Below, in pieces: positions 11,088-63,884 of a DNA stretch of 64,000 nt (the first letter of the stretch is position 1; every line of letters starts with the position of its first letter). A program made the translations under genes and the position numbers. This DNA is from an uncultured Collinsella sp. Its GTDB lineage: Bacteria; Actinomycetota; Coriobacteriia; Coriobacteriales; Coriobacteriaceae. The stretch lies in contig UQXC01000001.1 of NCBI GenBank assembly GCA_900544995.1, positions 15,752 to 79,751 of the forward strand, written 5' to 3'. A model generated the notes under the pieces. The model had not been told where the DNA came from. It worked only from the letters and a program-made list of their open reading frames with translations, and did no database searches.

Positions 11088-11426
11088 ATGGAATATCGAC
11101 AGACAGATGGCAAAACTCGGCGCGTGCACAAGCAGTATGTGGACGTCGTGGCTCGCATCCTCGCGGGCGGACAGGTCGTGCCGGTCACCGTCTGCTGGGT
11201 CGACGGTCGTTGCTTTACGATTGACGAGATTGTCTCGACCACTGGGTTTGGCCTGACGGTTCACGGCATCCGTACGGCGACCTATAAGGTGCGTTTTGGC
11301 GGGCACGCGACCGAGTTGTATCTGGAGGACCAGACGCGCGAACGACCAGATGGCTCGCAGGCCCATCTGATGCGTTGGTGGGTGTGGGCATTCGACCGTA
11401 CGCTCGAGGGCGAGCGCCGTGGGTAA
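11088..11426 (+). CDS. Hypothetical protein (112 aa).
   Basis: ORF preceded by a strong SD (TAGGAGGC). No recognisable family. Confidence 0.4.
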   Translation: MEYRQTDGKTRRVHKQYVDVVARILAGGQVVPVTVCWVDGRCFTIDEIVSTTGFGLTVHGIRTATYKVRFGGHATELYLEDQTRERPDGSQAHLMRWWVWAFDRTLEGERRG

Positions 11427-11510
11427 GGACGTGCGGCATTCGGGTACAATGACAGGAATCTTGTCAGCTACTGCGCCGTTATTTGTGGCGCTTTTTGAAA
11501 GGACGAACCT

Positions 11511-12206: not shown

Positions 12207-12347
12207 AACGCGGCATTGCGACGCTTCCTGCCGGACACGGTAAAACGATGCGAAAGGCGGTCCTTCGGGGCCGTCTTTTTTGTGCGCGGCGGGGTATCAT
12301 GGATGGGAAAAAGCCGATAGCGGCAGCGACAGGAAAGGTGGCCACGT

Positions 12348-43627: not shown

Positions 43628-43783
43628 TGCAGCGGCAGTGTGGGACGTCTCGTGGTTGTCGGTAAAAGAAAATTATCAGGCGAGAGATATTTATCATAAA
43701 CATTATTCGCGCCGAAGTATAATCCTATTACAGAATAAAGCCTGCGGTGAGGTGCCCGGGCATAGCGTTCGAAAGGGTTGAAC

Positions 43784-44656: not shown

Positions 44657-44741
44657 TGCGGCTTGGCGCGATAATTCCATCGTTTTGTGTTTCACTCCGT
44701 CCTGTGTTCGCTTGGAGCTTTTCGTGCTTAATAGATTCCGC

Positions 44742-46166
44742 ATGCTTGTCGCCTGTGCTTTGACCTTCGCGCTTTGCTGGGTGCCGGGATTTGCGTTTGC
44801 TGGGGACGCCGAGGACGGGGCCCAGGTTGCTGCGACCGCTCATGGGCTTTCCTATGGAATCGAGGGTTTTGAGCGGTTGGCGAAGGGGACCGCTCGTGCC
44901 ATGGAGGGCCAGCCTGAGGGCTACCGGTTTCCCGTTGACGAGGACGTGGACCTTGTAGTGGCGCCTGCTGCCGATCGCGTTGTGGCGTGGATATCGCCCA
45001 AGGCGGTCGAGAAGTATGGATTGGATCCGCAGGACAACGAGTGCGTATCGGGTCTCAAGGCCCTCGTCTGTGACCTCGACAGCGCAAACTGCATGGGAGG
45101 TGCGCGGCTGGGGGACGTGGATCTTCCTTGGTATGTCACGGCGGAAACAACGTTTGATGCCGGCGGGTATACCTATGGCTTTGATGAGCGCGGTGCGGAT
45201 GGGGACCGCTATGTGGTGATTGCGTCAGCCTCGGGTGATGCCAAGGGCGGAGCGCGTTGGCTTGATAGCGCTCAAATGGTAGAAGCATCGTCTGTCGTGA
45301 TGCGGGATGAGCAGGGGCCCTTGACCTCTCTGGCTTCCTTTTTGGGCGACATCGACTATCGCCCGTTTTGGGTGTCCATTAAAACGTGCGGCCTTGCCCT
45401 GCTGATCTCCTTTGCGCTGGGCCTGTTCGCCGCGTGGAAGACTATGGGTACCTCGAGTCGCATCAAGGGCCTGCTCGATTCGGTCTTTACGATTCCTATG
45501 GTGCTGCCGCCCACGGTCTGCGGCTTTTTGCTCCTCATGCTGTTTGGCCGCTCGACTGGGGTGGGCCGGTGGCTCATCGCGCACGGCATCTCGATCGTCT
45601 TTACCTGGCCCGCGGCGGTCATTTCGGCCGTCGTTGTGTCGTTTCCGCTGGTCTACCGCACGGCGCTCGGAGCCTTCGAGAGCCTCGACACGCAGATGCT
45701 CGATGCGGCGCGAACCCTGGGATGGTCCGAACGTCGCATCTTTGCCAAGCTTATGATGCCGCTCGGCTGGCCCTCGATTGCCGCCGGCACGGTGCTTGCC
45801 TTTGCCCGCGCGATGGGCGAGTTTGGCTGCACCCTGTTCTTTGCGGGCAACTACGCTGGTATTACGCAGACCATTCCCATCGCCATCTACTTTGAGTGGA
45901 TGGGCAGCAACACGTCCGTGGCCCTCTTTTGGGTCGTCGTCGTAATCGCCTTTAGCTTCTTGGTCATCCTGTTTATCAACATGTACACCGCTCATTCGCA
46001 AAAGTATCGCGAGCGGGGCCTTTCCCGTGCGGAGCGTAAACAGGCCAAAGATCTCGCCGGACAGGCCGATTCGCTCGACCCGGCGGGCGGCGATGCCCTG
46101 CGTATCGATCGCGAGGCGCTGGCCGAGCTCATGCGCGATGATGCCGCTTTGCAGGGAGGTCGATAG
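44742..46166 (+). CDS. modB: Molybdate ABC transporter permease ModB fused to a ~200-aa N-terminal secreted domain of unknown function.
   Basis: The C-terminal ~270 aa are typical ModB (…FWVSIKTCGLALLISFALGLFAAW…, EAA-loop region). The N-terminus has a signal peptide (MLVACALTFALCWVPGFAFA) and a Cys-containing soluble domain. An alternative GTG start at 44724 has a GGAG SD. Confidence 0.7.
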   Translation: MLVACALTFALCWVPGFAFAGDAEDGAQVAATAHGLSYGIEGFERLAKGTARAMEGQPEGYRFPVDEDVDLVVAPAADRVVAWISPKAVEKYGLDPQDNECVSGLKALVCDLDSANCMGGARLGDVDLPWYVTAETTFDAGGYTYGFDERGADGDRYVVIASASGDAKGGARWLDSAQMVEASSVVMRDEQGPLTSLASFLGDIDYRPFWVSIKTCGLALLISFALGLFAAWKTMGTSSRIKGLLDSVFTIPMVLPPTVCGFLLLMLFGRSTGVGRWLIAHGISIVFTWPAAVISAVVVSFPLVYRTALGAFESLDTQMLDAARTLGWSERRIFAKLMMPLGWPSIAAGTVLAFARAMGEFGCTLFFAGNYAGITQTIPIAIYFEWMGSNTSVALFWVVVVIAFSFLVILFINMYTAHSQKYRERGLSRAERKQAKDLAGQADSLDPAGGDALRIDREALAELMRDDAALQGGR

Positions 46167-46169
46167 GCC

Positions 46170-47240
46170 ATGTCGCTCGTTCTGGATATCAAAAAGCGCT
46201 ATCCCGGGTTTATGCTCGACATGCAGCTTGAGGCCGGCGAGGAGCGTGTGGCGCTGCTGGGCGCCTCGGGTTGCGGCAAGAGCTGTACGCTGCGCTGCAT
46301 TGCCGGTGTGGAGGCGCCCGACGAGGGCAAGATCGTCGTCAACGGCGTGACCTTTTTTGACTCGGCGGCGGGCATTAACCTGTCGCCTCAGGAGCGAAAA
46401 TGCGCCCTGTTGTTCCAAAACTATCAGTTGTTTCCCAACATGACGGTGGCCGATAACGTATGTGCCGGTGTAAAGGGCGCGGGCGACGCCGCGGCGCGCA
46501 AAAGGCTGGCCGAGCGCTATCTGGGCATTTTCGGTCTGGCTGATTTCGCCGACCGCTATCCCGCGCGCCTCTCGGGCGGCCAGCAGCAGCGCGTGGCGCT
46601 CGCGCGCATGGTGGCGGCGCACCCGGGCATCTTTATGTTCGACGAGCCCATGAGCGCACTCGATTCCTATCTTAAGAGCGCGCTCGAACAGAACATGCTC
46701 GACCTGTTCGATGTATGCAACCGCACCGTGCTCTACGTGAGTCACGATATCGACGAGGCGTGCCGTCTGTGCGAGCGCATCTGCGTGATGCACAACGGGC
46801 ATGTGGAGGAGATCGGCTCCGTCGAGGACGTGGTCCGCCGGCCGCAAACCTTGGCCGCGCTGCGCTTGACGGGCTGCAAGAACACGAGCCGGGCGCGCAA
46901 GATCGGCGACGAAGAAGTTGAAGCCCTCGACTGGGGCATGACCTTTAACGTGGGTCGCGAGGTTCCCGATAATGTGGAGTACCTGGGCATTCGCGCAAGC
47001 TACTTCCATGTTGACAATCGCGCTGAGCGGGGTCGCAACAGCTACGACCTGCACGTGGCGCGCGTGAGCGACTCGCGTTTTGAGCGCCTGGTGCTGTTGG
47101 ATGCGCCGCGGGCCGATGCGCCCACCCGTCTTCAGTGGAAGGTCAACAAGGTGAGCATGCCTGTCGACGAGCTGCCGCAAGCAGGCGAGACGCTGCGCAT
47201 GCATTTTGATGCCAGCAGGATCCATTTGGTTTGTCGATAG
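46170..47240 (+). CDS. modC: Molybdate import ATP-binding protein ModC with a C-terminal TOBE domain.
   Basis: Walker A (GASGCGKS), ABC signature (LSGGQQQR) and a ~120-aa C-terminal extension. Confidence 0.85.
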   Translation: MSLVLDIKKRYPGFMLDMQLEAGEERVALLGASGCGKSCTLRCIAGVEAPDEGKIVVNGVTFFDSAAGINLSPQERKCALLFQNYQLFPNMTVADNVCAGVKGAGDAAARKRLAERYLGIFGLADFADRYPARLSGGQQQRVALARMVAAHPGIFMFDEPMSALDSYLKSALEQNMLDLFDVCNRTVLYVSHDIDEACRLCERICVMHNGHVEEIGSVEDVVRRPQTLAALRLTGCKNTSRARKIGDEEVEALDWGMTFNVGREVPDNVEYLGIRASYFHVDNRAERGRNSYDLHVARVSDSRFERLVLLDAPRADAPTRLQWKVNKVSMPVDELPQAGETLRMHFDASRIHLVCR

Positions 47241-47667: not shown

Positions 47668-48951
47668 ATGGCTGATGAATTTGATTTCCATCCGATGTGG
47701 GAGAGCCTCGGCATGAATCTTGCCGACCACGATATGCTGCTGGGCGCCGTGGGCCAGATGTATGGGGACATGTTCCTGTCGCAGAATAACCGTCCCAAGT
47801 CCACGTCCTACCTGGACTTTGTGGCCACCAACATCCATAGCGGCCGCATTAAGGAGATGCTCGACAAGAAGGAGGCCGGCGAGGCCACCAAGATCGTGGG
47901 CTCGTTCTGCGTCTACGTGCCCGAGGAGATCGTACTTGCCTGTGACGGCATCCCCGTGGGCCTGTGCTCGGGTGCCGATTGGGCAACCGATAAGGTCGAG
48001 GAGCACCTGCCGCGCAACACCTGTCCGCTTATCAAGAGCTTTGCCGGCTTTAAGCTGGGCGAGGTCTGCCCCTACATTGAGTCGAGTGACCTGGTGGTGG
48101 GCGAGAACACCTGCGATGGCAAGAAGAAGGCTTATGAGTTTTTTGCCACGCAAAAGAACATGTACGTCATGGATATTCCCAACGTGCACGACGAGTCGAC
48201 GCTCGTGACTTGGAAGGCCGAGGTCAAGAAACTCGCCGCCAAGATCGAGGAAGAGTGCGGCGTCACGATTACGTCTGAGCGTCTGAAGGCCGCCATCCAC
48301 GCCGTCAATGAGAAGCGTCGCGCCCTGCAGCGCCTCGCTGCCACGCGCGCTGCCGACCCTGCACCTATTAGCGGTCTCGACAGCCTGCTGACCGTTCAGG
48401 CCGCCTTTATGGACGACACGCCGCGTCTGACCGGAGCCATCAACGATATGGCGGCTGAGTGCGAGCAGCGTGTCGAGGCCGGCGAGGGCGTGGCGCCCAA
48501 GGGGACCAAGCGCATCCTGTACACCGGCACGCCCATGGCCGTGCCCAACTGGAAGCTGTTCAACCTCATCGAGAAGGCCGGCGGCGTCGTGGTGGGCGAG
48601 GAGTCCTGCACGGGCTCGCGCTACTACAAGGACCTGGTCGATGAGTCCGGCGAGACGGTCGACGAGATGCTTGACGCCATCGCCGAGCGCTACTTTAAGA
48701 TCAACTGCGCCGTCTTTACGCCCAACGACCAGCGCATGAAGGACATCGTCCAGATGACCAAGGACCTGCATGCTGACGGCATCGTCGACGTGGCCCTGCA
48801 GTTCTGCACGCTCTATGAGATGGAGTCGTTTGCCGTGGAGAAGGCCGCCGAGGAGGCAGGCATTCCGTTTATGCACATCACGACCGACTACGCCGGCGAG
48901 GACGCCGGTCAGCTCCAGACCCGCATCGAGGCCTTCCTCGAGACGATTTAG
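47668..48951 (+). CDS. 2-hydroxyacyl-CoA dehydratase (HgdB/BcrB-like) family protein, double-cubane-cluster-protein-like; paralog 1.
   Basis: Cys motifs typical of the HGD-D family (…CVYVPEE…ACDG…, NTCPLIKSF, ENTCDGKKK, …CTGSR…, QFCTLYE). It is 427 aa and standalone, not an HgdA/HgdB pair. Confidence 0.7.
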   Translation: MADEFDFHPMWESLGMNLADHDMLLGAVGQMYGDMFLSQNNRPKSTSYLDFVATNIHSGRIKEMLDKKEAGEATKIVGSFCVYVPEEIVLACDGIPVGLCSGADWATDKVEEHLPRNTCPLIKSFAGFKLGEVCPYIESSDLVVGENTCDGKKKAYEFFATQKNMYVMDIPNVHDESTLVTWKAEVKKLAAKIEEECGVTITSERLKAAIHAVNEKRRALQRLAATRAADPAPISGLDSLLTVQAAFMDDTPRLTGAINDMAAECEQRVEAGEGVAPKGTKRILYTGTPMAVPNWKLFNLIEKAGGVVVGEESCTGSRYYKDLVDESGETVDEMLDAIAERYFKINCAVFTPNDQRMKDIVQMTKDLHADGIVDVALQFCTLYEMESFAVEKAAEEAGIPFMHITTDYAGEDAGQLQTRIEAFLETI

Positions 48952-49135
48952 CCGCACCTGCGCCAAGCTGTGCCGCCGGGTGTTCCTATCTACGCGATAG
49001 GGATTTCTCTGTTGCCACGCCGGCCGGTGTCCGGATGCACCGCAGGGCGCCGATCGGCTTCGCATAGTTGCCGGGGCGGGGATTTCCGCCGTCCCGGCAG
49101 ATTCTATCCGTTTGTTCAGACACGAAAGGAACTCA

Positions 49136-50746
49136 ATGAACAACGACCTTTTCAAGGCGGGCGTTTCCCGTCGCGGTTTTCTGACCGGCTTCGCTGCCCT
49201 GTGCGCCATGGCGGGCCTCGGCCTCGCCGGCTGCGGCGGTTCGGGCGCCGAGAGCGGTAGCGCCGCTGCCTCCGGCCAGGATGTGGAGTATCGCGACGAG
49301 CTGCAGATTGCGTTACCGGCGAGCCCGGACGGTCTCGATCCGCACACCACGTCGTCGCTTGTGACCATGGACATCATCTGCAACGTCGTCGAGCCGCTTT
49401 TTGGCCTCGATAGCGACTACGAGCCCCAGCCCGTGCTGGCTAAGGGCTATGAGGTCTCCGACGACGGCCTGACCTACACCATCAAGCTGCGCGAGGGCGT
49501 CACCTTCCACAACGGCAAGGAGTTTGGCTCCGAGGACGTCGTGGCCTCGATGAACCACTGGCTCGCCGTCAACGACCGCGCCACGAGCCTGCTGCCCGGC
49601 GCCACCTTCGCCGCCTCGGGCGACCACGAGGTCACCTGCACGCTGACCGAGCCCGCCATCGACTTTCTGATCATCCTGGGCAACCACTCCCAGTATCCGG
49701 GTATCTTCCCCTCCGAGGTCATCGAGGCCGCGGGCGATACCGGCGTGACCGAGTACGTGGGTACCGGTGCCTACAAGTTTGTGGAGTGGAAGCAGGACCA
49801 GTACGTCCATCTTACCCGCTACGAGGACTATGTCGCCGCCCACGGCAAGGCTTCGGGCTACACCGGCAAGGTCTCCGCGCCCACCAAGGACATCTACTAT
49901 CAGTTTGTGACCGAGGCCTCCACGCGCGTGAGCGGGTTTGAGACCGGCGAGTACGATGTCGCTGGCGAGATCCCCACCGAGAACTACCACGACTTCGACG
50001 GCAACGACGACGTTAAGCTCTACACCCATAACGCCGGCGTTCTGACCGCCTTCCTCAACATGAACGAGGGCGTCTTCGCCGACGAGGAGATCCGCAAGTG
50101 CGCACTCATGGCTATCGACTGCGAGGCGGCCGCTCTTGCCGCCTATGGCGAGAAGGAGCTCTTCAACATCGATCCCAACCTTGGCAACCCCGAGAACACT
50201 CAGTGGGCGACCGACGCGGGCAAGAAGTACTTTAACCAGGCCGACGCCAAGGCCGCCAAGAAGGCCCTGGCCGAGACCTCCTATGCCGGTGAGACGGTCA
50301 AGCTGCTGACCACCCCCGACTACAAGGATATGTACAACGCCACCGTCGCGCTGCAGGAGCAGCTCGAGAAGGCCGGCTTCACCGCCGAGGTCGACAGCTA
50401 CGAGTTCGCGACCTTTATGGACATCCGCTCCAGCAAGCCCGAGCAGTGGGACCTCTTCGTGGCCTCCACCAACTACAAGCCCATCCCGGCCCAGTCCCTC
50501 TCGGTCTCCAAGGCCTTCTATGGCCTGTCCGACGAGAAGGCGCTCAAGCTCGTTGCCGAGACCCGCACCGCCAAGGACACCGACGCCGCGGCCAAGAAGT
50601 GGGCCGAGGCTCAGGAGCGTCTCTATGAGATCGCCGTCATCGAGCCGCTTTGCCACTACGCTTCCATCACGGGCACCCAGGCAGACGTCGAGGACGTCGA
50701 GGTGCTCGACGGCGCCATCATCTGGAACGCCAAGCGTCCGGAGTAA
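49136..50746 (+). CDS. ABC transporter substrate-binding protein, family 5 (Opp/Dpp/Nik-type), Tat-lipoprotein.
   Basis: SRRGFLTGFAALCAMAGLGLAGCGG leader. SBP_bac_5 pattern of about 540 aa. Confidence 0.75.
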   Translation: MNNDLFKAGVSRRGFLTGFAALCAMAGLGLAGCGGSGAESGSAAASGQDVEYRDELQIALPASPDGLDPHTTSSLVTMDIICNVVEPLFGLDSDYEPQPVLAKGYEVSDDGLTYTIKLREGVTFHNGKEFGSEDVVASMNHWLAVNDRATSLLPGATFAASGDHEVTCTLTEPAIDFLIILGNHSQYPGIFPSEVIEAAGDTGVTEYVGTGAYKFVEWKQDQYVHLTRYEDYVAAHGKASGYTGKVSAPTKDIYYQFVTEASTRVSGFETGEYDVAGEIPTENYHDFDGNDDVKLYTHNAGVLTAFLNMNEGVFADEEIRKCALMAIDCEAAALAAYGEKELFNIDPNLGNPENTQWATDAGKKYFNQADAKAAKKALAETSYAGETVKLLTTPDYKDMYNATVALQEQLEKAGFTAEVDSYEFATFMDIRSSKPEQWDLFVASTNYKPIPAQSLSVSKAFYGLSDEKALKLVAETRTAKDTDAAAKKWAEAQERLYEIAVIEPLCHYASITGTQADVEDVEVLDGAIIWNAKRPE

Positions 50747-50834
50747 TGCAATAGATGGCGTGGCGGCTGGAGGGGTCTGGTCCCCTGTGGCCGCCACGCC
50801 CTGTCCACGTTCAGAGGGGAAATAGACGCCTCGC

Positions 50835-51788
50835 ATGTTGAAGTACACGCTCAAACGTATAGGCGCGATGGTTCCGGTGATGCTCATCATCTCGGTCGTC
50901 GTGTTTTTGATTATCTATCTCACACCGGGTGACCCGGCCTCTTCGATGCTCGGCATGGAGGCTTCGGCCGACCAGATCGAGCGCGTCAACGATAGCCTGG
51001 GACTCAACGAGCCGCTGCCGCAGCGCTACGTTGATTGGATGGGCGGCGTGCTTACCGGCGACCTGGGCGATTCGTATTTTATGCGCCAGCCCGTCACGCA
51101 GGCGATTGCAGAGCACTTTGGCCCCACGCTATCGCTCGCGCTTCTGGCACAGCTCATCGCGCTGTTGATTGCACTGCCCTGTGGCGTCGTCGCTGCCCTC
51201 AAACATGGGTCGCGCACCGACGCGGTCTTGCGTGTCGTTGCTCTTTTGGGCGTGGCGATACCCGGCTTTTTGATGGCGCTCATGCTTATGTGGCTGTTTG
51301 CCGTCACGTTGCGTGTGTTCCCGGTGGCCGGCTATGCGCCGCTATCGAAGGGTTGGTTCAGCCATTTGCGCTATCTTGCGTTGCCGGCCATATCGCTTGG
51401 ATGCGTGCAGGCGGCCCTGCTCATGCGCATGACCCGTTCGAGCGTTATCGAGGCCATGCAGCTTGACTGCGTCAAGACGGCGCGTGCAAAGGGCGTCTCC
51501 GAGGTTCGCGTGGTGCTGGCCCATGCCCTGCGCAACGCAGCACTGCCGATTCTCACCTCGGTCGGCTATTCTTTTGGCGCCCTGATTACGGGCGCCGTGG
51601 TGACTGAGGCCATTTTTAACATCCCTGGTTTGGGCCAGCTGGTCACGAGCTCTATCGAGCGTCGCGACTATCCGGTGATTCAGGGCGTGCTGCTGGTCAT
51701 CGCCTTGTTGAATTCGGTGATCAATCTGGTCGTCGACCTTGCCTACGGCGCTTTTGACCCGCGCGCTCGCAAATGGGGCGATGCATGA
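50835..51788 (+). CDS. ABC transporter permease (OppB/DppB/NikB-like).
   Basis: BPD-transporter permease with N-terminal TM segments and a C-terminal EAA-like region. Confidence 0.8.
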   Translation: MLKYTLKRIGAMVPVMLIISVVVFLIIYLTPGDPASSMLGMEASADQIERVNDSLGLNEPLPQRYVDWMGGVLTGDLGDSYFMRQPVTQAIAEHFGPTLSLALLAQLIALLIALPCGVVAALKHGSRTDAVLRVVALLGVAIPGFLMALMLMWLFAVTLRVFPVAGYAPLSKGWFSHLRYLALPAISLGCVQAALLMRMTRSSVIEAMQLDCVKTARAKGVSEVRVVLAHALRNAALPILTSVGYSFGALITGAVVTEAIFNIPGLGQLVTSSIERRDYPVIQGVLLVIALLNSVINLVVDLAYGAFDPRARKWGDA

Positions 51789-52615
51789 TGACAAACGTTA
51801 AGAAGGCTCTTGCCAACAAGGGGTTTGTGGTCGGCGGCTGCATTTTCCTGGCGATTGCGCTGATCGCGCTCGTCGGTCCGCTGGTGTGGACGGTTGATCC
51901 CAATGCGCAGGAAATGGCGTTGCGACTTTCGGCGCCTTCGCCTGCGCATCCCTTTGGCTGCGATGACTTTGGCCGCGACCTGCTTGCCCGCGTCATCGCG
52001 GGCGCGCGCGTGTCGCTTGGCGTTGGCATTGCCGTCACGCTCGCGACGAGTGCGCTCGGCCTGGTGATCGGCGCCTATGCGTGCTACAACGAGAGGCTCG
52101 ATCATATTCTCATGCGCATCTGCGACGGCCTTATGTCCATTCCGGGCGTGCTTTTGGCTATCGCACTCATGGCCATGATGGGCGCCTCGGTCTGGAACGT
52201 CATCATCGCGCTCTCCATCGTCTATACGCCCAGCATGGCGCGCATCGTGCGCTCGCGTGCGATGGTGGTCAAGGAGGAGCCCTTTGTGGAGGCCCTGCGC
52301 GTGCAGGGCGCCTCGACCGCACGCATCGTGTGGCTGCATATCGTGCCCAACGTTATGGCGCCCTTCCTGGTGCAGGCGACCTTCGTCTTTGCCGAGGCCG
52401 TGCTCTCGGAGGCCGCCCTCTCGTTTCTGGGCCTGGGTATCAAGGCGCCCGACGCCAGCTGGGGAAACATCCTGCAGGCGGGTAAGAACGTGATGCGCAA
52501 AGCCTGGTGGATGATCTTCTTCCCGGCTATCGCCATCATCGCGAGCGTGCTTTCGCTGAACCTCGCCGGCGACGGCCTGCGCGACGCCCTCGACCCCAAG
52601 ACTAAGGAGGACTAG
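51785..52615 (+). CDS. ABC transporter permease (OppC/DppC/NikC-like).
   Basis: Second permease. Its start overlaps the previous stop (ATGA-type coupling); the alternative upstream ATG is at 51773. Confidence 0.8.
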   Translation: MMTNVKKALANKGFVVGGCIFLAIALIALVGPLVWTVDPNAQEMALRLSAPSPAHPFGCDDFGRDLLARVIAGARVSLGVGIAVTLATSALGLVIGAYACYNERLDHILMRICDGLMSIPGVLLAIALMAMMGASVWNVIIALSIVYTPSMARIVRSRAMVVKEEPFVEALRVQGASTARIVWLHIVPNVMAPFLVQATFVFAEAVLSEAALSFLGLGIKAPDASWGNILQAGKNVMRKAWWMIFFPAIAIIASVLSLNLAGDGLRDALDPKTKED

Positions 52616-52618
52616 CCC

Positions 52619-53603
<985 letters not shown>

Positions 53604-53614
<11 letters not shown>

Positions 53615-54389
53615 TAGCGAAGCCCTGCTTAGGGTCTCACATCTGACTAAAACGTATCCCATGCCGGGCTCAGGTTTTAAGCGTCAGGCCTTTACCGCCG
53701 TGGACGATCTGTCGTTTGAGATCGCACCGGGCGAGGTCTATGGCCTGGTTGGCGAATCCGGATCGGGCAAGTCGACGACTGGACGCCTGATCTGTGGTCT
53801 CGAGCGTGCGGATTCCGGCTCGATTGTCTATCGCGGGCACGACCTCGCCACGATGTCGGAGCGCGAACGCAAGCCGTTTCGCCGCGAGATCCAGCTGGTA
53901 TTCCAGGATAGCTCTACGGCTTTTGACCCACGTAACCGTGTCGGCCGCATTTTGGAGGAGCCGCTGATTATCGCCGGCGTGCGCGATGCGGATGAGCGCC
54001 ATGAGCGCGCGCTCTCGGCCTTGGCCTCGGTCGGTCTTCTGGCAGAGCATTATGACCGCTATCCGCACGACCTTTCGGGGGGACAGCGTCAGCGACTCAA
54101 TCTGGCACGGGCGCTTATTTGCGAGCCGCGCCTTGTGGTATGCGACGAGCCGGTCTCGGCGCTTGACGTGTCCGTTCAGGCCCAAGTGCTCAACTTGCTT
54201 CGCGACCTGCAGCGCACGACGGGCGTGGCGCTGCTGTTTATCACGCATGATATGCGTGTGGTTCGGCATATGTCCGACCGGATTGGCGTGCTCTACCACG
54301 GTCGTCTTGTCGAGGAAGGCGCGGCCGAGGACGTGATCGCGCACCCGAGCGATCCGTATACGCAGGAGCTTATCGACGCCATTCCCTAG
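53604..54389 (+). CDS. ABC transporter ATP-binding protein (OppF/DppF-like).
   Basis: Walker A (GESGSGKS) and signature (LSGGQRQR). The start is at MAVDSEA with a GAGAAAGGGGAG SD, overlapping the previous gene. Confidence 0.85.
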
Positions 54390-54465
54390 AGGATGCTTCC
54401 TTTTGGGTATGGCGTGGGTTTGTTGTTGAATTGTCGGTATATCGGTGCAAGAGAGGGGAACTACT

Positions 54466-55629
54466 ATGGCCGATATCGAGGAACAGCCGTTGCCGCGCAC
54501 GTTTGAGGAGTTCAACGAGCAGCGCAAGGCGGCGTTTATTCGCGTCAAGGATTACAAGCAGGCCGGTAATCGCCTGATCGGTTTTCTGTGCAGCTACACG
54601 CCGCTCGAGATTATCGATGCCGCGGGGGCTGCGAGCGTGGCACTGTGCGGCACGTCCGACGAGGTGATTCCCGAGGCCGAGAAGGTGCTGCCGGCAAACC
54701 TCTGCCCGCTCATCAAGTCGACGTACGGCTTTGCCTACTCGCAAAAGTGCCCGTTTACGTACTTTAGCGACATGATCATCGGTGAGACCACCTGCGACGG
54801 CAAGAAGAAGATGTACGAGTTGCTCAACGAGCTCAAGCGCACGCACATTCTGCATCTTCCGCAGGGTCGCGATCGCGCCTACGAGCGTGAGGGCTGGTAC
54901 GAGGAGTGCCGCCTGCTCAAGGAGGAGCTCGAGGGTTTCTACGGCATCACGATTACCGACGATGACCTGCGCGCTGCCGTCCGTCGTCGCAACCGCTTGC
55001 GTGCGGCCCAGCTCGACATGTTTGCGCTGCAGGCCAACCAGCCGGCGGCCATGAGCGGCGTCGACCTGATGAGCACCATGTTTGCCGGTACGTTTAGCTT
55101 TGATATCGAGGCCTATACGCAGCAGCTGGAGCAAAAGGTTGCCAAGCTGCGTGAGGCCTACGAAGCGGGCGAGCGCCCGGTTGCGGCGGACGCCAAGCGC
55201 ATTCTGATCACCGGTTGCCCGGTGGGCGGCGTGATCAACAAAATCGGTCGCACCATCGAGTCCAACGGCGGCGTGGTTGTGTGCATGGACGACTGCTCGG
55301 GCGAGCGCACGGCGGCCATGATGATCGATCCGGAGGCCCCCGACATCCTGCGCGCTATCGCCGACCGCTACCTGGATATCAACTGCTCGGTCATGACGCC
55401 CAACGACGGCCGTATGGAAAACACGCTGGCCATGTGCGAGAAGTATCACGTCGATGGCGTAGTGGAGAGCGTGCTACAGGCCTGCCACACCTTTAACGTG
55501 GAGAGTGCACGCATGCAGGAGGCTGTCGAGGGTGCGGGTATTCCGTACATGAAGATCGAGACCGACTACAGCAACGGTGACATGGGCCAGATCGAGACCC
55601 GCATCGCCGCCTTCATCGAAACCCTGTAG
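54466..55629 (+). CDS. 2-hydroxyacyl-CoA dehydratase (HgdB/BcrB-like) family protein, double-cubane-cluster-protein-like; paralog 2.
   Basis: Same Cys-motif pattern as paralog 1 (LCSYTPLE…, [35 protein letters not shown]). The start is at MADIEEQ with an AGAGAGGGGA SD. Confidence 0.7.
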
Positions 55630-55733: not shown

Positions 55734-56498
55734 ATGATAGGGATCGGGATCGATATCGGGTCTACGGCGGTTAAGGCCGCTGTGGTCGATGAGGAGGGTT
55801 CGGTGGCGTGGACGTGCGTGCAGCCAACCGGGTTCTCCTCGGTCGATGCGGCCGAGCGTCTGCGCGAGGCACTGGCAGCGGCTGGCTATGACGTGGCTGC
55901 CGACGACGTGCGCGCGATCGCGACCGGCTACGGTCGTGTCGCCGTGCCCTATGCGCACAAGGTCGTGACCGAGATCACCTGCCACGGCACCGGTGCCGTG
56001 CGCCTGTTTGGTGACCATGGCACCGTGATCGATGTGGGCGGTCAGGATACCAAGGTCATCCAACTCAAGGGCGGCCGCGTGGCCAAGTTTGCCATGAACG
56101 ACAAGTGCGCCGCCGGCACGGGGCGCTTTTTGGAGATCATGGCCGACCGTCTAGGCATTTCCCAGCAGCAGATGGCCGACCTGGCGCGTTCCGGCGAGCC
56201 CACCAAGATCAGCAGCATGTGTACGGTGTTTGCCGAAAGCGAGGTTATCAGCCTGATCGGTCGCGGTGAGCCGCGCGAGAACATAGCCCGTGGCGTGATC
56301 GACAGCGTGGTCTCGCGCGTGGCGACCATGGCCGGGCAGGCTGCGGGCGCCCCGTACTACCTGACCGGTGGCCTGTGCGAGAACGCCTACGTTGTGGAGC
56401 GGTTGGGCGAGCTACTGGGGTCGCCAGTGACCACCTCGCCCCAGGCTCGCTTTGCCGGAGCGATCGGCGCGGCTGTCCGCGCCGCCGCCTTGGCCTAG
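55734..56498 (+). CDS. Acyl-CoA dehydratase/reductase activase ATPase (BadF/BadG/BcrA/BcrD/HgdC family).
   Basis: ASKHA-fold activase pattern (MIGIGIDIGSTAVKAAVVDEEG…, conserved Cys pair region CAAGTGRFLE). It is 254 aa. Confidence 0.8.
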   Translation: MIGIGIDIGSTAVKAAVVDEEGSVAWTCVQPTGFSSVDAAERLREALAAAGYDVAADDVRAIATGYGRVAVPYAHKVVTEITCHGTGAVRLFGDHGTVIDVGGQDTKVIQLKGGRVAKFAMNDKCAAGTGRFLEIMADRLGISQQQMADLARSGEPTKISSMCTVFAESEVISLIGRGEPRENIARGVIDSVVSRVATMAGQAAGAPYYLTGGLCENAYVVERLGELLGSPVTTSPQARFAGAIGAAVRAAALA

Positions 56499-56512: not shown

Positions 56513-57730
56513 ATGCGCATCCTCAATATCTCGGCACAAAAACCAGATAGCACGGGCAGCGGCACCTACCTTGCCGCGCTCGTGCGTGAGCAGATCGAGA
56601 CGGGGCATCGCGCCGCCGTGCTTTGCGGCGCGGCACCGGGTGATACCCAGGGCGAGCTGGACCGGCGTGCTGCCGTGTTTGCCGTACCGTTCGAGTCGCC
56701 CGAGCTGCCGTTTCCCATCTGCGGTATGTCCGATATCATGCCCTATCCCTCCACACGCTATCGTGACCTGACGCCTTCGATGCTCAAGGCATTTGAGCGG
56801 GCATTTGCTGCTGCAATCGATCGGGCGGTGGCTGAGTTTCGGCCCGATCTGGTGCTCTGCCATCACCTGTATCTGGTGACCGCATTGGCGCGCGAGTGCG
56901 TCCGGGGCGTGCCGGTTGTTGCCGTGTGCCATTCGACCGACCTGCGCCAGCTGCGTTCGCATGCGCTCGAGCGCGATCGCATCGTACGTGCGGTTCGTCG
57001 GCTCGATGCCGTCTTTGCGCTCCATGCTGAGCAGGCTGAGCAGATTGGCCTGGTGTGCGGCGTCAATGCCGATCGCATCCACGTGATTGGGACGGGCTAC
57101 GACCATCGCGTTTTCTGCCGCGACGCAAGCGTGGCGAGGCAGCCGGGATCGCTTGTGTACGTGGGCAAGATTTGCTTTAAAAAGGGCGTCGAGTCGCTGG
57201 TTCGAGCCGTGTCATTGCCGATTGACGATGGCGTCCGCCCATCTGGCTTGGTGCTTGTGGGCGGCCGCGGGGACGATGCCGAGTACGCGCGTGTCGAGCG
57301 TTTGGCCGCGGCCTCGGATGTGCCGGTGACGCTGGCGGGGCGCCTGGATAGCGATGGGCTCGTGCGCGCCTACCGCAGTTCCGACGTCTTTGTGCTGCCT
57401 TCGTTTTACGAGGGTCTGCCGCTCGTGACGATCGAGGCCCTCGCGTGCGGCTGCAAAGTTGTGGCGACCGATTTGCCCGGCGTTCGTCCTTGGATGGAGG
57501 CGATGCTTCCCGGCGCTCCCGTGACGTGGGTGGCGTCGCCGCGTATGACGGATGTCGACACGCCTGTGGCGGCCGAGCTTCCGTTGTTTGAGCGCGCACT
57601 GGCAGATGCTATCGCGCTGGCGCTTGCGGCTCCGCCTTCGACGTTCGAGCCGTCGGCGGTCTCTTGGGAAGCGTGCCTGGGGCGTATACTTAAAGTCGTT
57701 GATTTGTTGGAAGGGGGTTCGTATGGCTGA
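56513..57730 (+). CDS. GT-B glycosyltransferase (GT4-like); candidate selenosugar synthase (senB-like) by its translational coupling to selD.
   Basis: GT4-type pattern (…FVLPSFYEGLPLVTIEALACG…). The stop (TGA at 57728-57730) overlaps the selD ATG at 57723 (ATGGCTGA). The senB analogy is inference. Confidence 0.65.
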   Translation: MRILNISAQKPDSTGSGTYLAALVREQIETGHRAAVLCGAAPGDTQGELDRRAAVFAVPFESPELPFPICGMSDIMPYPSTRYRDLTPSMLKAFERAFAAAIDRAVAEFRPDLVLCHHLYLVTALARECVRGVPVVAVCHSTDLRQLRSHALERDRIVRAVRRLDAVFALHAEQAEQIGLVCGVNADRIHVIGTGYDHRVFCRDASVARQPGSLVYVGKICFKKGVESLVRAVSLPIDDGVRPSGLVLVGGRGDDAEYARVERLAAASDVPVTLAGRLDSDGLVRAYRSSDVFVLPSFYEGLPLVTIEALACGCKVVATDLPGVRPWMEAMLPGAPVTWVASPRMTDVDTPVAAELPLFERALADAIALALAAPPSTFEPSAVSWEACLGRILKVVDLLEGGSYG

Positions 57731-58772
57731 CGATCAGATTAAGCTCACGTCTATGACTGCCGCGAGCGGTTGAGCCGCTAAGTTGGCTCCCGGAGCCCTC
57801 GCCCAGGTCCTGGGCGATTTACCCAATGTGCATAACGACAACCTGCTCGTAGGGTTCGATACCTCCGACGATGCGAGCGTCTTCCGCGTAGGGGAGAACC
57901 TGGGGCTCGTGCAGTCCATCGACTTCTTCCCACCGATGGTCGACGACCCGTTCCTCTTTGGCCAGATCGCCGCGGCCAACTCGCTGTCGGATATCTACGC
58001 CATGGGCGGGCGGCCGAGCCATGCCATGAACTTGCTGTGCATCCCGAGCTGCCTGGGCATCGAGGTCGCCGGCCAGATTCTGGCGGGCGGCGCCGACAAG
58101 TGCGTCGAGGCGGGTTGCTCCATCGCGGGCGGCCATACCATCAACGACGACGAGCCCAAGTACGGCCTGTCCGTGAGTGGTTTTGTCGCGCTCGACCGCA
58201 TGCTCGCCAACAGCGGCGCACGCGTGGGCGATGTTCTGCTGCTGACCAAGGCGATCGGCTCGGGCATTATCACCACGGCCATTAAGGGCGAGCTCATCGA
58301 GCAGGACGAGGCCGCAGCCATGTTTGACTCGATGCGCACCCTCAACGAGGCTCCGATTCGTCTGGCCGAGGGACTTGAGCTTCACGGCTGCACCGACATT
58401 ACGGGCTTTGGTCTGATCGGGCATGCGTGCGAGATGGCCGAGGGCTCGGGCGTGCAAATCGAGCTCGCGTCGGGGGCGGTGCCGCTCTTTGACCAGGTGC
58501 TCGACATGGCGCGTCTGGGCATTATCCCCGCGGGCTCCTACCGCAACCAGGACTTCTTTGGCCCGCGTGTAGCTGCCGACGATGACCTGGAGCCGGGCAT
58601 GCTGGATGCGCTGTACGATCCGCAGACTTCGGGCGGTTTGCTTATTGCGGCGCCCGCGGCGGATGCGGATGAGCTTGCGCGTCGTTTACATGCCGAGGGG
58701 CGCGTTGCCGCTACGATCGGCCGCGTGTGCGAGCCGGTGCCGGGCGGTCCTGCCGTTCGCGTTGCGCATTAA
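57723..58772 (+). CDS. selD: Selenide, water dikinase SelD, selenocysteine-containing (in-frame UGA at 57771-57773).
   Basis: N-terminus MADDQIKLTSMTAASG-U-AAKLAPGALAQVLGD aligns with the E. coli [25 protein letters not shown], with Sec at the catalytic Cys position. The frame is continuous with the SelD ORF called from TTG 57783. Confidence 0.8.
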
Positions 58773-58831
58773 GGAAAACCGTTTATGCGACCGCCTACTG
58801 TTCTGGGCGGTCCCTTTTGAAAGGAAAAACT

Positions 58832-59458
58832 ATGTCTACCAAAATTGAAGTCAATGCCATGGGCGATGCCTGCCCGCTGCCCGTCGTCAAGACGCTCAAA
58901 GCCCTGAAGCAGCTCGATGGCGAGGGCACAGTCGTGACCTCGGTCGACAACGAGACCGCCGTCAAGAACATCTCCAAGATGGCGCAGGAGAAGGGCTGCA
59001 CGGCCTCAGTCGAGAAGGTTTCTGACGCTGAGTGGCACGTGACCGTCGCGACCGTCGGTGCCGTGGCCGTTGCGGACCCCGAGCAGGACGGCGCTGCTTT
59101 CTGCGACGCCAGCGCCGGCAAGGGCAAACTTGTCATTTCCGTCTATACCGATTGCATGGGCCGTGGCGACGACGAGCTGGGCCACAAGCTCATGAAGGCG
59201 TTTGTCTTTGCCGTGACGCAGCAGGAGGAGCTGCCCGCGACTATGCTTTTCTACAACGGCGGTGCCAAGCTCACCGTCGAGGGCTCGCCGGTGCTCGATG
59301 ACCTGAAGGGCTTGGCGGAGCAGGGTGTCGAGATTCTCACCTGCGGTACCTGCCTCGACCACTATGGCATTAAAGACCAGCTTGCGGTGGGCGAGGTCAC
59401 CAACATGTACGTGATCGTGGAGAAGATGGAGCAGGCCGCGCGCGTCGTGCGCCCGTAG
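58832..59458 (+). CDS. yedF: YedF-type selenium-metabolism protein (TusA-like CPxP domain plus DsrE-like domain).
   Basis: N-terminal NAMGDACPLPVVKTLKAL (TusA CPxP motif) and a C-terminal DsrE/F-like fold (…LTCGTCLDHYG…). SD GAAAGGAAAAAC. Confidence 0.7.
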   Translation: MSTKIEVNAMGDACPLPVVKTLKALKQLDGEGTVVTSVDNETAVKNISKMAQEKGCTASVEKVSDAEWHVTVATVGAVAVADPEQDGAAFCDASAGKGKLVISVYTDCMGRGDDELGHKLMKAFVFAVTQQEELPATMLFYNGGAKLTVEGSPVLDDLKGLAEQGVEILTCGTCLDHYGIKDQLAVGEVTNMYVIVEKMEQAARVVRP

Positions 59459-59477
59459 CGTATTGGTTGGAGTTGCC

Positions 59478-59729
59478 ATGAGGGAGAAGCGCCCGGCGCT
59501 TGTCATCACGTTTCCCACCACGGCGGCCGCCATGGGTTGCGAGTCCCTGTGCATCGAGCGCGGTCTTCCCGGGCGGACGATTCCCGTGCCCGGGGAGGTC
59601 GCTGCCGGCTGCGGTTTGGCGTGGAAGGCGTTGCCTGCCGATGAGGAGCTGCTGCGCGGCGAACTCGCCGCGGCGGGCGTTCCCACCGAGGGCTTTACGG
59701 TGATCGACATGTGGGAGGTCGTGCGATGA
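59478..59729 (+). CDS. DUF3343-domain small protein (commonly paired with YedF/SelD).
   Basis: An ~83-aa protein (MREKRPALVITFPTTAAAMGCESLCIERGLPGRTIPVP…). Its stop overlaps the next gene's start (ATGA). Confidence 0.55.
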   Translation: MREKRPALVITFPTTAAAMGCESLCIERGLPGRTIPVPGEVAAGCGLAWKALPADEELLRGELAAAGVPTEGFTVIDMWEVVR

Positions 59730-60865
59730 TCTACCTGGATAACGCGGCGACGACCATGCACAAGCCGCAGGCGGTCATCGACGCCGTGACGCAAGCGATG
59801 TGCTCGCTCGGCAATGCTGGGCGCGGTGCCACCTCGGGTGCGCTCGATGCGGCACGTACCATCCACGGCTGCCGCGCCAAGCTTGCGCGCTTGCTGGGCT
59901 GCCCGCGTGCTGACCATGTTTGTTTTACGCCCAACTCCACCGCGGCGCTCAACACCGTTATCAATGGCGTGGTGCGCCCCGGCGACCGCGTGGTCACGAC
60001 GGTGCTTGAGCACAACTCGGTGCTACGTCCGCTCAACCGCTTGGCGGCAGAGCAGGGCGTGACCGTTGAGCATGCGGGCTGCGACGCGAACGGTGTGCTC
60101 GACTACGACGAGCTCGAGCGGTTGGTCACGCCGGGCACGCGTGCCGTGGTGGTGACGCACGCCTCCAATGTGACCGGCAACGCGGTCGACATTGCGCGCG
60201 TGGCTGCCATCGCGCATGCGGCCGGCGCGCTGGTGATCGTCGACGCCTCGCAGTCTGCCGGCACGGCGCATATCGATATGCAGGCCATGGGGCTCGACGT
60301 CGTGTGCTTTACCGGCCACAAAGGGCTGATGGGTCCGCAGGGCACTGGCGGCCTGGCCGTGGCGGAGGGCGTCGACGTGGCGCCCTGGGCCATGGGCGGC
60401 ACCGGTGTACACAGCTTCGATGAGCTGCAGCCACTGGAGTGGCCCACGCGCCTGGAGGCCGGTACGCTCAACGGCCACGGTATCGCTGGCCTTTCTGCTG
60501 GCCTCGACTTTATCGAGGCCCAGGGTGGGGTCGAGGCGATTGCTGCCCACGAGCGTGCGCTCGCCGATCGCCTCCTTGCCGGCGTGCGCGAGATTCCGGG
60601 GATTAAGCTCTACGGTGCCTTTGACCAGCCGACGCGCTCTGCGATTGTGTCGCTCAACGTGGGCGATATCGATTCTGCCGAGATCTCGGATGCGCTCATG
60701 CAAGGGTGGGGGATTGCGACGCGCCCCGGCGCCCATTGCGCCCCGCTCATGCACCGTGCGCTGGGAACCGAGCGCCAGGGCGTCGTCCGCTTCTCATTTG
60801 GGTATTTCAACACGACCGAAGAAGTCGACACGGCTATCGATGCTCTGTGCGATTTAGCCTGCTAA
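59726..60865 (+). CDS. Class-V aminotransferase-fold cysteine desulfurase / selenocysteine lyase-like protein.
   Basis: IYLDNAATT N-terminus; the PLP-lysine region FTGHKGLMGPQGTGGL; C-terminal ATRPGAHCAP active-site Cys loop. Confidence 0.75.
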   Translation: MIYLDNAATTMHKPQAVIDAVTQAMCSLGNAGRGATSGALDAARTIHGCRAKLARLLGCPRADHVCFTPNSTAALNTVINGVVRPGDRVVTTVLEHNSVLRPLNRLAAEQGVTVEHAGCDANGVLDYDELERLVTPGTRAVVVTHASNVTGNAVDIARVAAIAHAAGALVIVDASQSAGTAHIDMQAMGLDVVCFTGHKGLMGPQGTGGLAVAEGVDVAPWAMGGTGVHSFDELQPLEWPTRLEAGTLNGHGIAGLSAGLDFIEAQGGVEAIAAHERALADRLLAGVREIPGIKLYGAFDQPTRSAIVSLNVGDIDSAEISDALMQGWGIATRPGAHCAPLMHRALGTERQGVVRFSFGYFNTTEEVDTAIDALCDLAC

Positions 60866-60943
60866 AGCTGCTAGAGCGTATATACTTGCGGGACGGGTGT
60901 TTTTGCCCGTCCCATTTTTTGTTTCAACCTGAAAGGTGGACCC

Positions 60944-62392: not shown

Positions 62393-62469
62393 TCGGGACG
62401 TGGCGCAGTTTGGTAGCGCGCCTGCTTTGGGAGCAGGATGTCGCAGGTTCAAATCCTGTCGTCCCGACC
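62393..62469 (+). tRNA. tRNA-Pro (anticodon TGG).
   Basis: Cloverleaf with acceptor cgggacg/cgtcccg, anticodon loop cuUUGGgag and T-loop GGTTCAAATCC. A 3' CCA is encoded. Confidence 0.85.
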
Positions 62470-62475
62470 ATATCT

Positions 62476-62549
62476 TGCGGGCGTAGTTCAATGGTAGAAC
62501 CCCAGCCTTCCAAGCTGATGACGCGGGTTCGATTCCCGTCGCCCGCTCC
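62476..62549 (+). tRNA. tRNA-Gly (anticodon TCC).
   Basis: Acceptor gcgggcg/cgcccgc, anticodon loop cuUCCaa and T-loop GGTTCGATTCC. A 3' CCA is encoded. Confidence 0.8.
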
Positions 62550-62560
62550 ATAAGATAGAT

Positions 62561-62596
62561 GAATGGCTCTGATTCCTTTAGGAACCAGAGCCATTT
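62561..62596 (+). terminator. Rho-independent terminator after the tRNA pair.
   Basis: aatggctctgattcc-ttta-ggaaccagagccatt followed by TTTT. Confidence 0.8.
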
Positions 62597-62628
62597 TCAT
62601 ATACATGCCGGGACCCCACATCCCCTCC

Positions 62629-62696
62629 TAAGTTGCGGTGAAATACGGACTGTTTTTCGGCTTTTATGGCCCATGTAGTCCGTATTTCACCGCAAC
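62629..62696. repeat. MITE/REP-like palindromic repeat, copy R5.
   Basis: aagttgcggtgaaatacggactgtttttcgg…gtagtccgtatttcaccgcaact. The outer flank ccccacatcccctcct mirrors the flank of R6. Confidence 0.75.
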
Positions 62697-62861
62697 TATT
62701 TGTAAGGTTGTTTTTTGATGCCGTTGGGAGGGTCGTGGCGACCGTCTACCGAGAGTGGAAATATTTTTTGAAGCTCTGACCTGCGGCGTCAAGCTTTTGG
62801 TCAGCTTTTGGCAAGGCCTGCGGACGGAAGCATGCGATAGCGTAATGATATTCTCTCCGCC

Positions 62862-63884
62862 GTGATGGTTATGGGGTTGGCCATGCTCGATAAAGGCAAA
62901 CATTTTCCGCAGTCATATGCAAGGATGCTATTCTCGGCCGTTGGAATTCATCAAGATGGACAGCTGCTTATAACAATTGATCCTTGGGATGAACGCCGTG
63001 CGCGTGAGCTTATGCAGGAAGAGCTCATGCTTCGTCTTTACAATCACGTGTATGCTGATCCGGTCTATTGGAATAATCTTGGGGTTGAAGATCGCATCTT
63101 TCAGCTGGCATCCGCTATTGCGGTCGTTGAACCGGATGCTGTGTTTTGCGGATCGACAGCAGCGCTGCTCTACGGCATCGGCTCGGCGTATACGCTTCTG
63201 GATAAAGTGCAAGTACTGCTGCCACGGTCTACAAGGCGTGATACGTATGAGTTCGTTGAATACAAGCGCTGGCGGGCGGGCGAAGTGTGGCGGCTAGGTC
63301 TGTTTACACTGACGGATCCGTGTCGAACGGTTGTTGATATCGCCCGAACGAGCGCCTTTCGCTATGCGCTGGGCTATGTCGATGGCTTGGCCCGTGAGTA
63401 CGATGTCGAACGCGAAGAGCTGCGAGCATATGCGCAGGCAAATTGTCGAGGGTTGCATGGCATCGCGCGTGCTTGTGACGTTTTTGATTATATGGATGGC
63501 AGGTCAGACAATGGCGGCGAGTCTGAGGCGAGAGCAGCGATGATTCTCGCTGGGGTTGCCGCGCCCGAGCTTCAAGTTGAGATAACGCGACCGGGAAACG
63601 CTGGCTATTATCTAGCAGATTATGGCTGGCAGATGCCAGACGGCTCATGGACGCTGGCAGAGCTGCATGGGCTAGGCAAGTTTGAAGACGAGGCTCAAAA
63701 TGATCCAGAGTGGGCGGCGGCAAAAACGTATCGAGCGGCCCTCATGCGCGACGCGAACCTTCGCGCCATGGGCCACAACGTCATTCATTTCAAACTCTCG
63801 GACACCTACGACGTGGAATCGTTCGGTGCCATGATGCGCGGCTACGGCATTCCGACAACAAAACCCTACGCTGACTCCCGATAG
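62862..63884 (+). CDS. Hypothetical protein (340 aa), possibly AbiEi-like; in a lower-GC cassette bracketed by repeats R5 and R6.
   Basis: ORF in a region of locally reduced GC. Motif CGSTAALLYGIG is reminiscent of the S..SAL.LHGL motif of AbiEi-type antitoxin domains (weak). No confident family. Confidence 0.4.
   Translation: MMVMGLAMLDKGKHFPQSYARMLFSAVGIHQDGQLLITIDPWDERRARELMQEELMLRLYNHVYADPVYWNNLGVEDRIFQLASAIAVVEPDAVFCGSTAALLYGIGSAYTLLDKVQVLLPRSTRRDTYEFVEYKRWRAGEVWRLGLFTLTDPCRTVVDIARTSAFRYALGYVDGLAREYDVEREELRAYAQANCRGLHGIARACDVFDYMDGRSDNGGESEARAAMILAGVAAPELQVEITRPGNAGYYLADYGWQMPDGSWTLAELHGLGKFEDEAQNDPEWAAAKTYRAALMRDANLRAMGHNVIHFKLSDTYDVESFGAMMRGYGIPTTKPYADSR

Follow-up and report, generated by a model that had tools for sequence, protein, structure and literature searches.

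The present analysis deals with a 64,000-nucleotide stretch of DNA from an uncultured Collinsella sp. (assembly GCA_900544995.1, contig UQXC01000001.1, positions 15,752 to 79,751; hereafter the window), and in particular with a gene for a GT4-type glycosyltransferase (GT) that overlaps selD, the gene of the selenophosphate synthetase. As listed in Table 1, GT is followed by selD, a long-form yedF, a DUF3343 gene and a gene for a class V cysteine desulfurase (csd). All five genes lie on the forward strand at 56513..60865, where an original prediction made from the sequence alone had placed them. The stop codon of GT overlaps the start codon of selD by 8 nt at 57723-57730 (ATGGCTGA), and the stop codon of the DUF3343 gene overlaps the start codon of csd within the letters ATGA. 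These genes and overlapping junctions, together with the in-frame UGA of selD, were thus confirmed in every detail.

The intrinsic terminator downstream of csd closes the operon, and no comparable terminator was found between 56498 and 60865. The best 80 genome matches to GT were all from Collinsella (aerofaciens group) with 97-98% identity, and the order GT-selD-yedF-DUF3343-csd was kept in these loci wherever the contig reaches. When long enough, the same loci read DCCP-activase-GT-selD-yedF-DUF3343-csd-brnQ, where DCCP is a double-cubane-cluster anaerobic reductase. The tight coupling of GT to selD that had been predicted is borne out. These results show that the stretch is a selenium-activation operon of a Collinsella gut bacterium.

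Table 1. Features of the window (window coordinates) and, in the last five rows, genes adjoining GT homologues in other loci (locus coordinates where given).
Feature	Location	Strand	Evidence
moeA	41826..43088
modABC	43778..47240
First DCCP	47668..48951		NF040772, 492 bits (cutoff 350)
Nik/Opp-type ABC transporter	49112..54389
Second DCCP	54445..55629	+	NF040772, 495 bits (cutoff 350); PF06050
ATP-dependent activase (BcrAD/BadFG family) for DCCP	55734..56498	+	TIGR00241, 231.8 bits; PF01869
GT4-type glycosyltransferase (GT), 405 aa	56513..57730	+	Glyco_transf_4 + Glycos_transf_1 / Glyco_trans_1_4
selD, selenophosphate synthetase	57723..58772	+	TIGR00476, 361 bits (cutoff 125)
Candidate SECIS element, two hairpins	57785..57817	+	Folding energy; inferred
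Long-form yedF (TusA + DsrE-like domains)	58832..59458	+	TIGR03527, 213.6 bits (cutoff 110); PF01206 + PF02635
DUF3343 (Se_S_carrier), putative Se/S carrier	59478..59729	+	PF11823, 66.4 bits
Class V PLP cysteine desulfurase / selenocysteine-lyase-like (EF2568 family)	59726..60865	+	TIGR01977, 417.5 bits (cutoff 377)
Intrinsic terminator	60890..60923	+	Stem of 10 pairs (7 G-C), then ATTTTTTGTT
PhnS2/PhnU2/PhnT2-like importer beside GT	L081 10420-14111; L132 3655-7576; L085, L086, L142, L145, L150, L161
PHP phosphatase beside GT	L101, L104, L108, L114, L118, L135, L149
PP2C_2 phosphatase beside GT	L088, L156, L157, L160, L163
HAD phosphatase beside GT	L085 9190-9909
DCCP + activase with GT	L102, L111, L123, L124, L163

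The in-frame TGA of selD lies at 57771-57773 and is selenocysteine (Sec) codon 17 in the context TAASG-U-AAKL. The N-terminal G-[UC]-x-x-K loop of SelD is present as SG-U-AAK, and the protein belongs to family TIGR00476. The UGA is conserved in Collinsella, Thermophilibacter and Arabiibacter. Hairpins 12-45 nt past it (-28.5 kcal/mol, z = -2.55 relative to shuffled sequences) form a candidate Sec insertion sequence (SECIS) element, while no SECIS family of Rfam was matched in 54-64 kb of the window. YedF is of the long form and belongs to TIGR03527. The desulfurase scored 352 bits with the SclA model NF040779, below the cutoff of 525; it does belong to the broader EF2568 family (TIGR01977).

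Neither selA nor selB is in the window. Collinsella aerofaciens is among the species recorded for the selenium-cofactor (molybdenum hydroxylase) trait, its selD standing beside a SirA-like gene (PMC2432076), and it has a selenium-dependent purine pathway (bioRxiv 10.1101/2025.04.24.650524). Because of these two records of trait and pathway, the selD of the window is the organism's general, Sec-containing selenophosphate synthetase, and neither an orphan nor a sen-type copy. The "orphan" sen-like module that had been proposed therefore turned out to contain the ordinary selD of a Sec-decoding organism. The supposed novelty of the arrangement had to be given up as well, since the linkage of selD, yedF, DUF3343 and Sec-lyase-family genes was already published (PMC5322559; bioRxiv 10.1101/2022.04.13.486033). 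The four genes downstream of GT are of the same families as the known selenium-activation module (Lin et al. 2015, PMC5322559; Zhang et al. 2008, PMC2432076), here gathered in one operon. However, the published descriptions of that module have no glycosyltransferase component, whereas the Collinsella operon has one. The sole trace in the literature is a STRING table in which "Shel_25140 (glycosyltransferase)" of Slackia heliotrinireducens, a possible family member, stands without comment as partner no. 6 of YedE (PMC5322559). The supplement of Kayrouz 2022 mentions neither GT4 nor Collinsella. The core of the operon is known, and the GT at its head may be a selenium-linked glycosyltransferase of a second kind, for which it is a concrete candidate.

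GT contains an N-terminal Glyco_transf_4 domain and a C-terminal Glycos_transf_1 domain (PF13439, 67.6 bits; PF00534, 63.1 bits; PF13692, 73.8 bits). It has the GT-B fold of two Rossmann-like domains and the EX7E motif, formed by E300 and E308 (PSFYEGLPLVTIEALAC), and is thus a member of GT4. Its further motifs are AQKPDSTGSG (8-17), GMSDIMPY (71-78), CHH (116-118) and HSTDLRQ (140-146). Down to about 31% identity, the residues Q9, T14-G-S-G17, G71-M-S-D74, P77-Y78, H118, H140, R145-Q146, K219, K224 and E308 are invariant. E300 is invariant in two family alignments and is Asp in three sampled members (L107, L132, L097). The family comprises at least 664 representatives of 50%-identity clusters (E < 1e-30), and GT is more than 50% identical across Coriobacteriia. 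All curated NCBIfam models gave 57 bits or less with GT against cutoffs of 260-460, the best one being a GlgM-type model (57 bits). The scores with BshA (TIGR03999, 33 bits, cutoff 273.7) and MshA (TIGR03449, 43.7 bits, cutoff 462.5) likewise leave GT outside these families. The predicted structure was confident (pLDDT 91). When it was compared with the PDB by Foldseek, the top matches were sucrose-phosphate synthases (SPS), ManT, GlgM, MshA and BshA; the sequence profile ranked GlgM, a sucrose-phosphate synthase and MshA at the top among PDB chains. GT has an acidic isoelectric point and no transmembrane segment, as would be expected of an enzyme that works in the cytosol on a soluble acceptor. 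We have thus shown that GT belongs to a large, functionally uncharacterised subfamily of soluble, retaining-type GT4 enzymes marked by QKPxxTGSG, GMSDxMPY and EX7E.

BshA, GlgM, SPS and MshA use a nucleotide-sugar to glycosylate small acceptors, most of which are anionic or phosphorylated. Besides being the best matches in sequence and structure, these enzymes share with GT the EX7E motif, an HxTD-type motif, a Gly-rich N-terminal loop, a cytosolic location and an acidic character, and phosphatase genes often occur near the GT family as they do with SPS/SPP or MshA/MshA2. GT differs from them in its private motifs QKPxxTGSG and GMSDxMPY, in its selenium-gene setting and in the lack of thiol-pathway partners. 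Some members of the family are natural fusions, namely with DUF6873 (P0188, P0202), with a GGACT domain (P0221) and with a GFO_IDH_MocA domain (P0267). These joined domains, one of them gamma-glutamylcyclotransferase-like and another an oxidoreductase, might give a clue to the acceptor or to later chemical steps.

To our knowledge, SenB is the only enzyme family that forms a carbon-selenium glycosidic bond. GT had been regarded as SenB-like, and it was indeed by an overlap with selD that SenB was discovered (bioRxiv 10.1101/2022.04.13.486033). The profile comparison did not bear this out: GT scored 20.3 bits (E = 2.3e-4) with the SenB model TIGR04348, whose cutoff is 300, and the match was confined to residues 205-324 (profile 131-247) of the C-terminal domain. 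SenB is not the closest solved structure to GT either, but a more distant relative within the same fold. An identification of GT as SenB was therefore rejected both by the hidden Markov model score and by structure comparison.

The two enzymes nevertheless have features in common. SenB (TIGR04348; PDB 8FBX), which is paired with SenC/SelD in selenoneine and ovoselenol biosynthesis, shares the GT-B fold with GT, and the gene of each overlaps selD. SenB's own closest structures are SPS (6KIH) and BshA (6N1X), its N-terminal domain binds phosphate, and its catalytic and donor-selecting residues are K158, N20, T23 and E231 (PMC10891094). By analogy, GT could plausibly take a phosphate-bearing selenium nucleophile as SenB does. 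On the other hand, GT has 405 aa and SenB about 305-310 aa, and GT carries the GT4 EX7E signature of retaining enzymes, unlike SenB. Their partners differ too, as GT stands with yedF, DUF3343, csd or selA/selB, whereas SenB stands with an EgtB- or OvoA-like protein; no EgtB-like/SenA or OvsA-like partner was found among the open reading frames (ORFs) annotated at 41.8-63.9 kb of the window. Because the nearest structures of SenB are the same SPS and BshA entries, and because the SenB score of GT is far below the cutoff, GT and SenB are cousins in one fold class and not one family.

The relation of GT to selenium genes was then followed across the family. A diversity sample was built from the called-gene neighbourhoods of homologues and from a metagenome scan seeded from a Firmicutes-like member, which gave 80 further loci with 33-56% identity to the query. 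Selenium genes in the metagenome loci were located by tblastn with selenium proteins; as the crude ORF caller errs in high-GC loci, gene content there was taken from tblastn and database-called genes. GTs were collapsed into lineages at 80% identity, and a lineage was called linked when a dedicated selenium gene lay within 6 kb of GT. By this measure, 13/70 GT lineages were linked to selenium genes; where the flank measured 8 kb or more, the count was 12/49. By a rough estimate, as distinct from a computed control, 1-2% would be linked by chance if a genome of 2-4 Mb has a few selenium loci.

The linked lineages are diverse in gene order. Thermophilibacter carries selD-selA-selB-yedF-DUF3343-GT-csd followed by an ATP-binding cassette (ABC) importer. 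Arabiibacter carries selB-selA <> GT-csd-yedF-DUF3343 with selD next on the opposite strand, and two Slackia-type lineages have selB-selA <> GT. An abundant Eggerthellaceae-like lineage has yedE-DUF3343-GT-csd-yedF, with GT overlapping both of its neighbours, and GT stands beside selenium genes in Senegalimassilia (by tblastn). A Lachnospiraceae lineage carries csd-yedF-DUF3343-GT, while ABC-csd-yedF-DUF3343-GT-selD followed by a selenium-associated LysR regulator was found in locus L132 (42% GC). Desulfomicrobium has selD-GT flanked by YedE (459 bits) and double-cubane genes. As can be seen, the order around GT is shuffled among selenium-linked lineages, and the junctions often overlap. In several phyla, GT runs in the same direction as selenium genes and is translationally coupled with them. 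Selenium-linked members are scattered across the family tree, and when all neighbours were clustered without bias, only generic ABC ATPases ranked ahead of SelD, YedF and the desulfurase. These results show that the link between GT and selenium genes goes beyond coincidence, and that the subfamily has been placed repeatedly in selenium loci of Actinomycetota, Bacillota and Desulfobacterota. The original prediction had named a lack of co-occurrence in other genomes as grounds for regarding the neighbourhood as coincidental; since the family recurs with selenium genes in three phyla, it is not coincidental. Such recurrent embedding of this GT4 subfamily in selenium loci appears to be previously undescribed. 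It should be added that in both Thermophilibacter (L081 14236-17239) and a Lachnospiraceae locus (L107 11495-13015) genes for a TetR-family regulator and a DUF3841 protein follow GT at a distance of a few genes.

GT also has recurrent neighbours of other kinds. A PhnS2/PhnU2/PhnT2-like importer of the ABC type, made up of a binding protein, a fused double permease and an ATPase (all below curated cutoffs), stands beside GT in eight lineages with 31-60% identity, and in two of these eight the importer and the selenium genes form one array. In Olsenella-type genomes GT adjoins such an importer and an HAD phosphatase, and the distant Limosilactobacillus clade has the same kind of importer next to GT; some Olsenella carry selD. 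Phosphatase genes recur beside GT (PHP in seven loci, PP2C_2 in five, HAD in one), and the presence of three unrelated phosphatase families suggests a phosphorylated intermediate or product. One Firmicutes lineage (L095, L096, L099, L100, L103) has GT between thyA-folA and the divergent glgC/glgD genes of ADP-glucose pyrophosphorylase. As the best sequence match of GT is GlgM, these neighbours could mean that ADP-glucose is the donor. A GT-DUF6873 fusion member lies beside a PP2C_2 gene, and one more distant member lies among unrelated genes, neither having a selenium gene nearby.

Upstream of GT, the window contains two DCCPs on either side of the Nik/Opp-type ABC transporter, and the activase gene directly precedes GT-selD. 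The activase stop codon is 14 nt 5' of the GT start, and the second DCCP gene is probably the first gene of the GT-selD transcription unit. Across the family, DCCP and activase accompany GT in 5/70 lineages (Senegalimassilia-type, Desulfomicrobium and others). The presence of DCCP and activase beside GT-selD fits a published and unexplained co-occurrence of DCCP with SelD, which at genome level amounts to 955/970 (Haft, bioRxiv 10.1101/2022.07.06.499078). That work rests on genome-level co-occurrence and SAO locus links and does not mention a glycosyltransferase; the likeness to it consists in the two NF040772 proteins and the activase upstream of GT and selD in the window.

Products of 602-669 aa that join activase and GT occur in some assemblies (P0005-P0009, P0013). 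A fusion as a general feature was rejected, because the activase ends in a stop codon and the two genes are in different frames; nearly all 80 Collinsella loci have TAG as the activase stop, and in one locus TTG stands in its place. The joined products are probably strain variants or artefacts of assembly or gene calling. Farther upstream lie moeA and modABC (molybdenum insertion and molybdate uptake), so that genes for two trace elements, molybdenum and selenium, are neighbours here. This agrees with the report that Collinsella aerofaciens has the trait of selenium-dependent molybdenum hydroxylases. Past brnQ, the window contains at 62394..63884 tRNA-Pro(TGG), tRNA-Gly(TCC) and then a 340-aa ORF (62862..63884), for which no NCBIfam match was found.

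In the operon, the Sec-lyase-like desulfurase, the DUF3343 carrier and YedF deliver reduced selenium to SelD, itself a selenoprotein, and its selenophosphate serves selenocysteine synthesis and, in Collinsella, selenium-dependent molybdenum enzymes. For GT, a mechanism can be proposed. With a selenium nucleophile among the products of its neighbours, GT could form a selenosugar. Candidate nucleophiles would be selenophosphate from SelD, as the original prediction had proposed, selenide, or a carrier-bound R-S-Se- on the desulfurase or DUF3343, and a neighbouring phosphatase could hydrolyse a glycosyl-(seleno)phosphate. Alternatively, GT might run in reverse and free selenium from an imported selenosugar. 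That GT makes or cleaves a carbon-selenium (or other carbon-chalcogen) glycosidic bond, being SenB-like in action and of independent origin, is the reading we put forward, with a probability of roughly 0.35. A wider proposal is held tentatively and with some doubt: the QKPxxTGSG/GMSDxMPY subfamily might have evolved independently as a second family of glycosyltransferases for selenium (chalcogens), widespread among anaerobes of gut and sediment, which would make a selenosugar carrier or store or cleave imported (e.g. host-derived) selenosugars for SelD, possibly with double-cubane reductases and an ABC importer.

Several observations weigh against a carbon-selenium bond as the business of GT. 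The characterised homologues nearest GT use oxygen nucleophiles. SenB inverts the anomeric configuration, as we read its reaction, while GT4 enzymes retain it. In about three quarters of the adequately flanked GT lineages no selenium gene comes as close as 6 kb (a count of neighbourhoods only), Olsenella-type genomes and the Limosilactobacillus clade being examples. In addition, GT is missing from the 10 kb around an Olsenella-type selenium island (L171), and GT is therefore dispensable for SelD function. This island (4974-12876) comprises yedE, a short TusA gene, two DUF3343 genes, two class V desulfurase genes, selD and yedF, along with genes for a C_GCAxxG protein and a SLAC1/TehA-like transporter. 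Finally, no residues were found to be private to selenium-linked GTs, as the core residues of the family are the same in linked and unlinked members. Core residues that do not depend on context argue for a single chemistry shared by the whole family, in which selenium need not take part; judging from these sequences, the chemistry is probably the same throughout the family.

Much of this agrees with another explanation, namely that GT makes a selenium-free small-molecule glycoside on a phosphorylated or carboxylated metabolite, as SPS, MshA, GlgM and BshA do, with a phosphatase acting next. The product, for example a precursor of a low-molecular-weight thiol or a protective solute, would aid the reduction or trafficking of selenium or serve under the same conditions, and the frequent recruitment of GT to selenium operons would thereby be explained. 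The nearest relatives in sequence and structure, the recurring PHP, PP2C_2 and HAD phosphatase genes, the glgC/glgD genes in one Firmicutes lineage, the constancy of the core residues whatever the context and the majority of unlinked lineages all speak for such a product. However, neither a deacetylase nor a cysteine ligase, which a thiol pathway needs, was seen in the neighbourhoods examined, and a generic metabolite poorly explains why GT is translationally coupled, in three phyla, to DUF3343, csd or selD. We consider this a serious rival, although one whose truth we would doubt rather than expect. Less probable is the absence of any functional link, in which a housekeeping GT lies near selenium genes through inherited synteny or co-regulation in anaerobes. 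Conservation above 50% identity in Coriobacteriia is indeed housekeeping-like, and the unlinked GTs of Olsenella-type genomes and most other lineages, as well as the GT-free island, are what it would lead one to expect. Yet the order around GT differs in nearly every selenium-linked lineage, the start and stop codons of GT overlap those of selenium genes, and the association recurs in Lachnospiraceae and Desulfomicrobium at only 35-45% GT identity. Inherited synteny therefore cannot explain the association, and we regard the absence of a functional link as improbable.

Two further possibilities carry little weight. GT most often stands immediately beside DUF3343 or csd, so that its acceptor might be one of the selenium relay proteins (DUF3343, YedF, the desulfurase or SelD), whose glycosylation would then modulate selenium transfer. 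Nevertheless, its nearest relatives act on small molecules, and members with no selenium neighbours would be left with no substrate, which makes the chance of a protein acceptor small. A true SenB/SenC pair of a selenoneine- or ovoselenol-like pathway lacking SenA would account for the overlap with selD and for the GT-B fold. It is already contradicted by homology (the TIGR04348 score given above), the SelD here is the housekeeping enzyme with Sec, its gene standing with yedF, DUF3343 and csd, and no EgtB-like gene was found among the ORFs annotated at 41.8-63.9 kb; such a pair must be considered highly improbable.

Even if the link of GT to selenium genes were only regulatory, the cluster has been shown not to be of the sen type. 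We know of no enzyme by which animals or their microbiota form or split selenosugars. If GT does act on the carbon-selenium bond, the operon would represent an undescribed branch of bacterial selenium metabolism and a second route to or from carbon-selenium glycosidic bonds. It would also provide the first functional lead for a family annotated only as generic glycosyltransferase family 4, and a third partner in the unexplained link between double-cubane reductases and selenium. Because the bacteria concerned include abundant members of the human gut (Collinsella, Eggerthellaceae and Lachnospiraceae), another glycosyltransferase family with ties to selD, yedF, DUF3343 and Sec-lyase genes would offer a testable handle on how the microbiota stores, scavenges and competes for this element.

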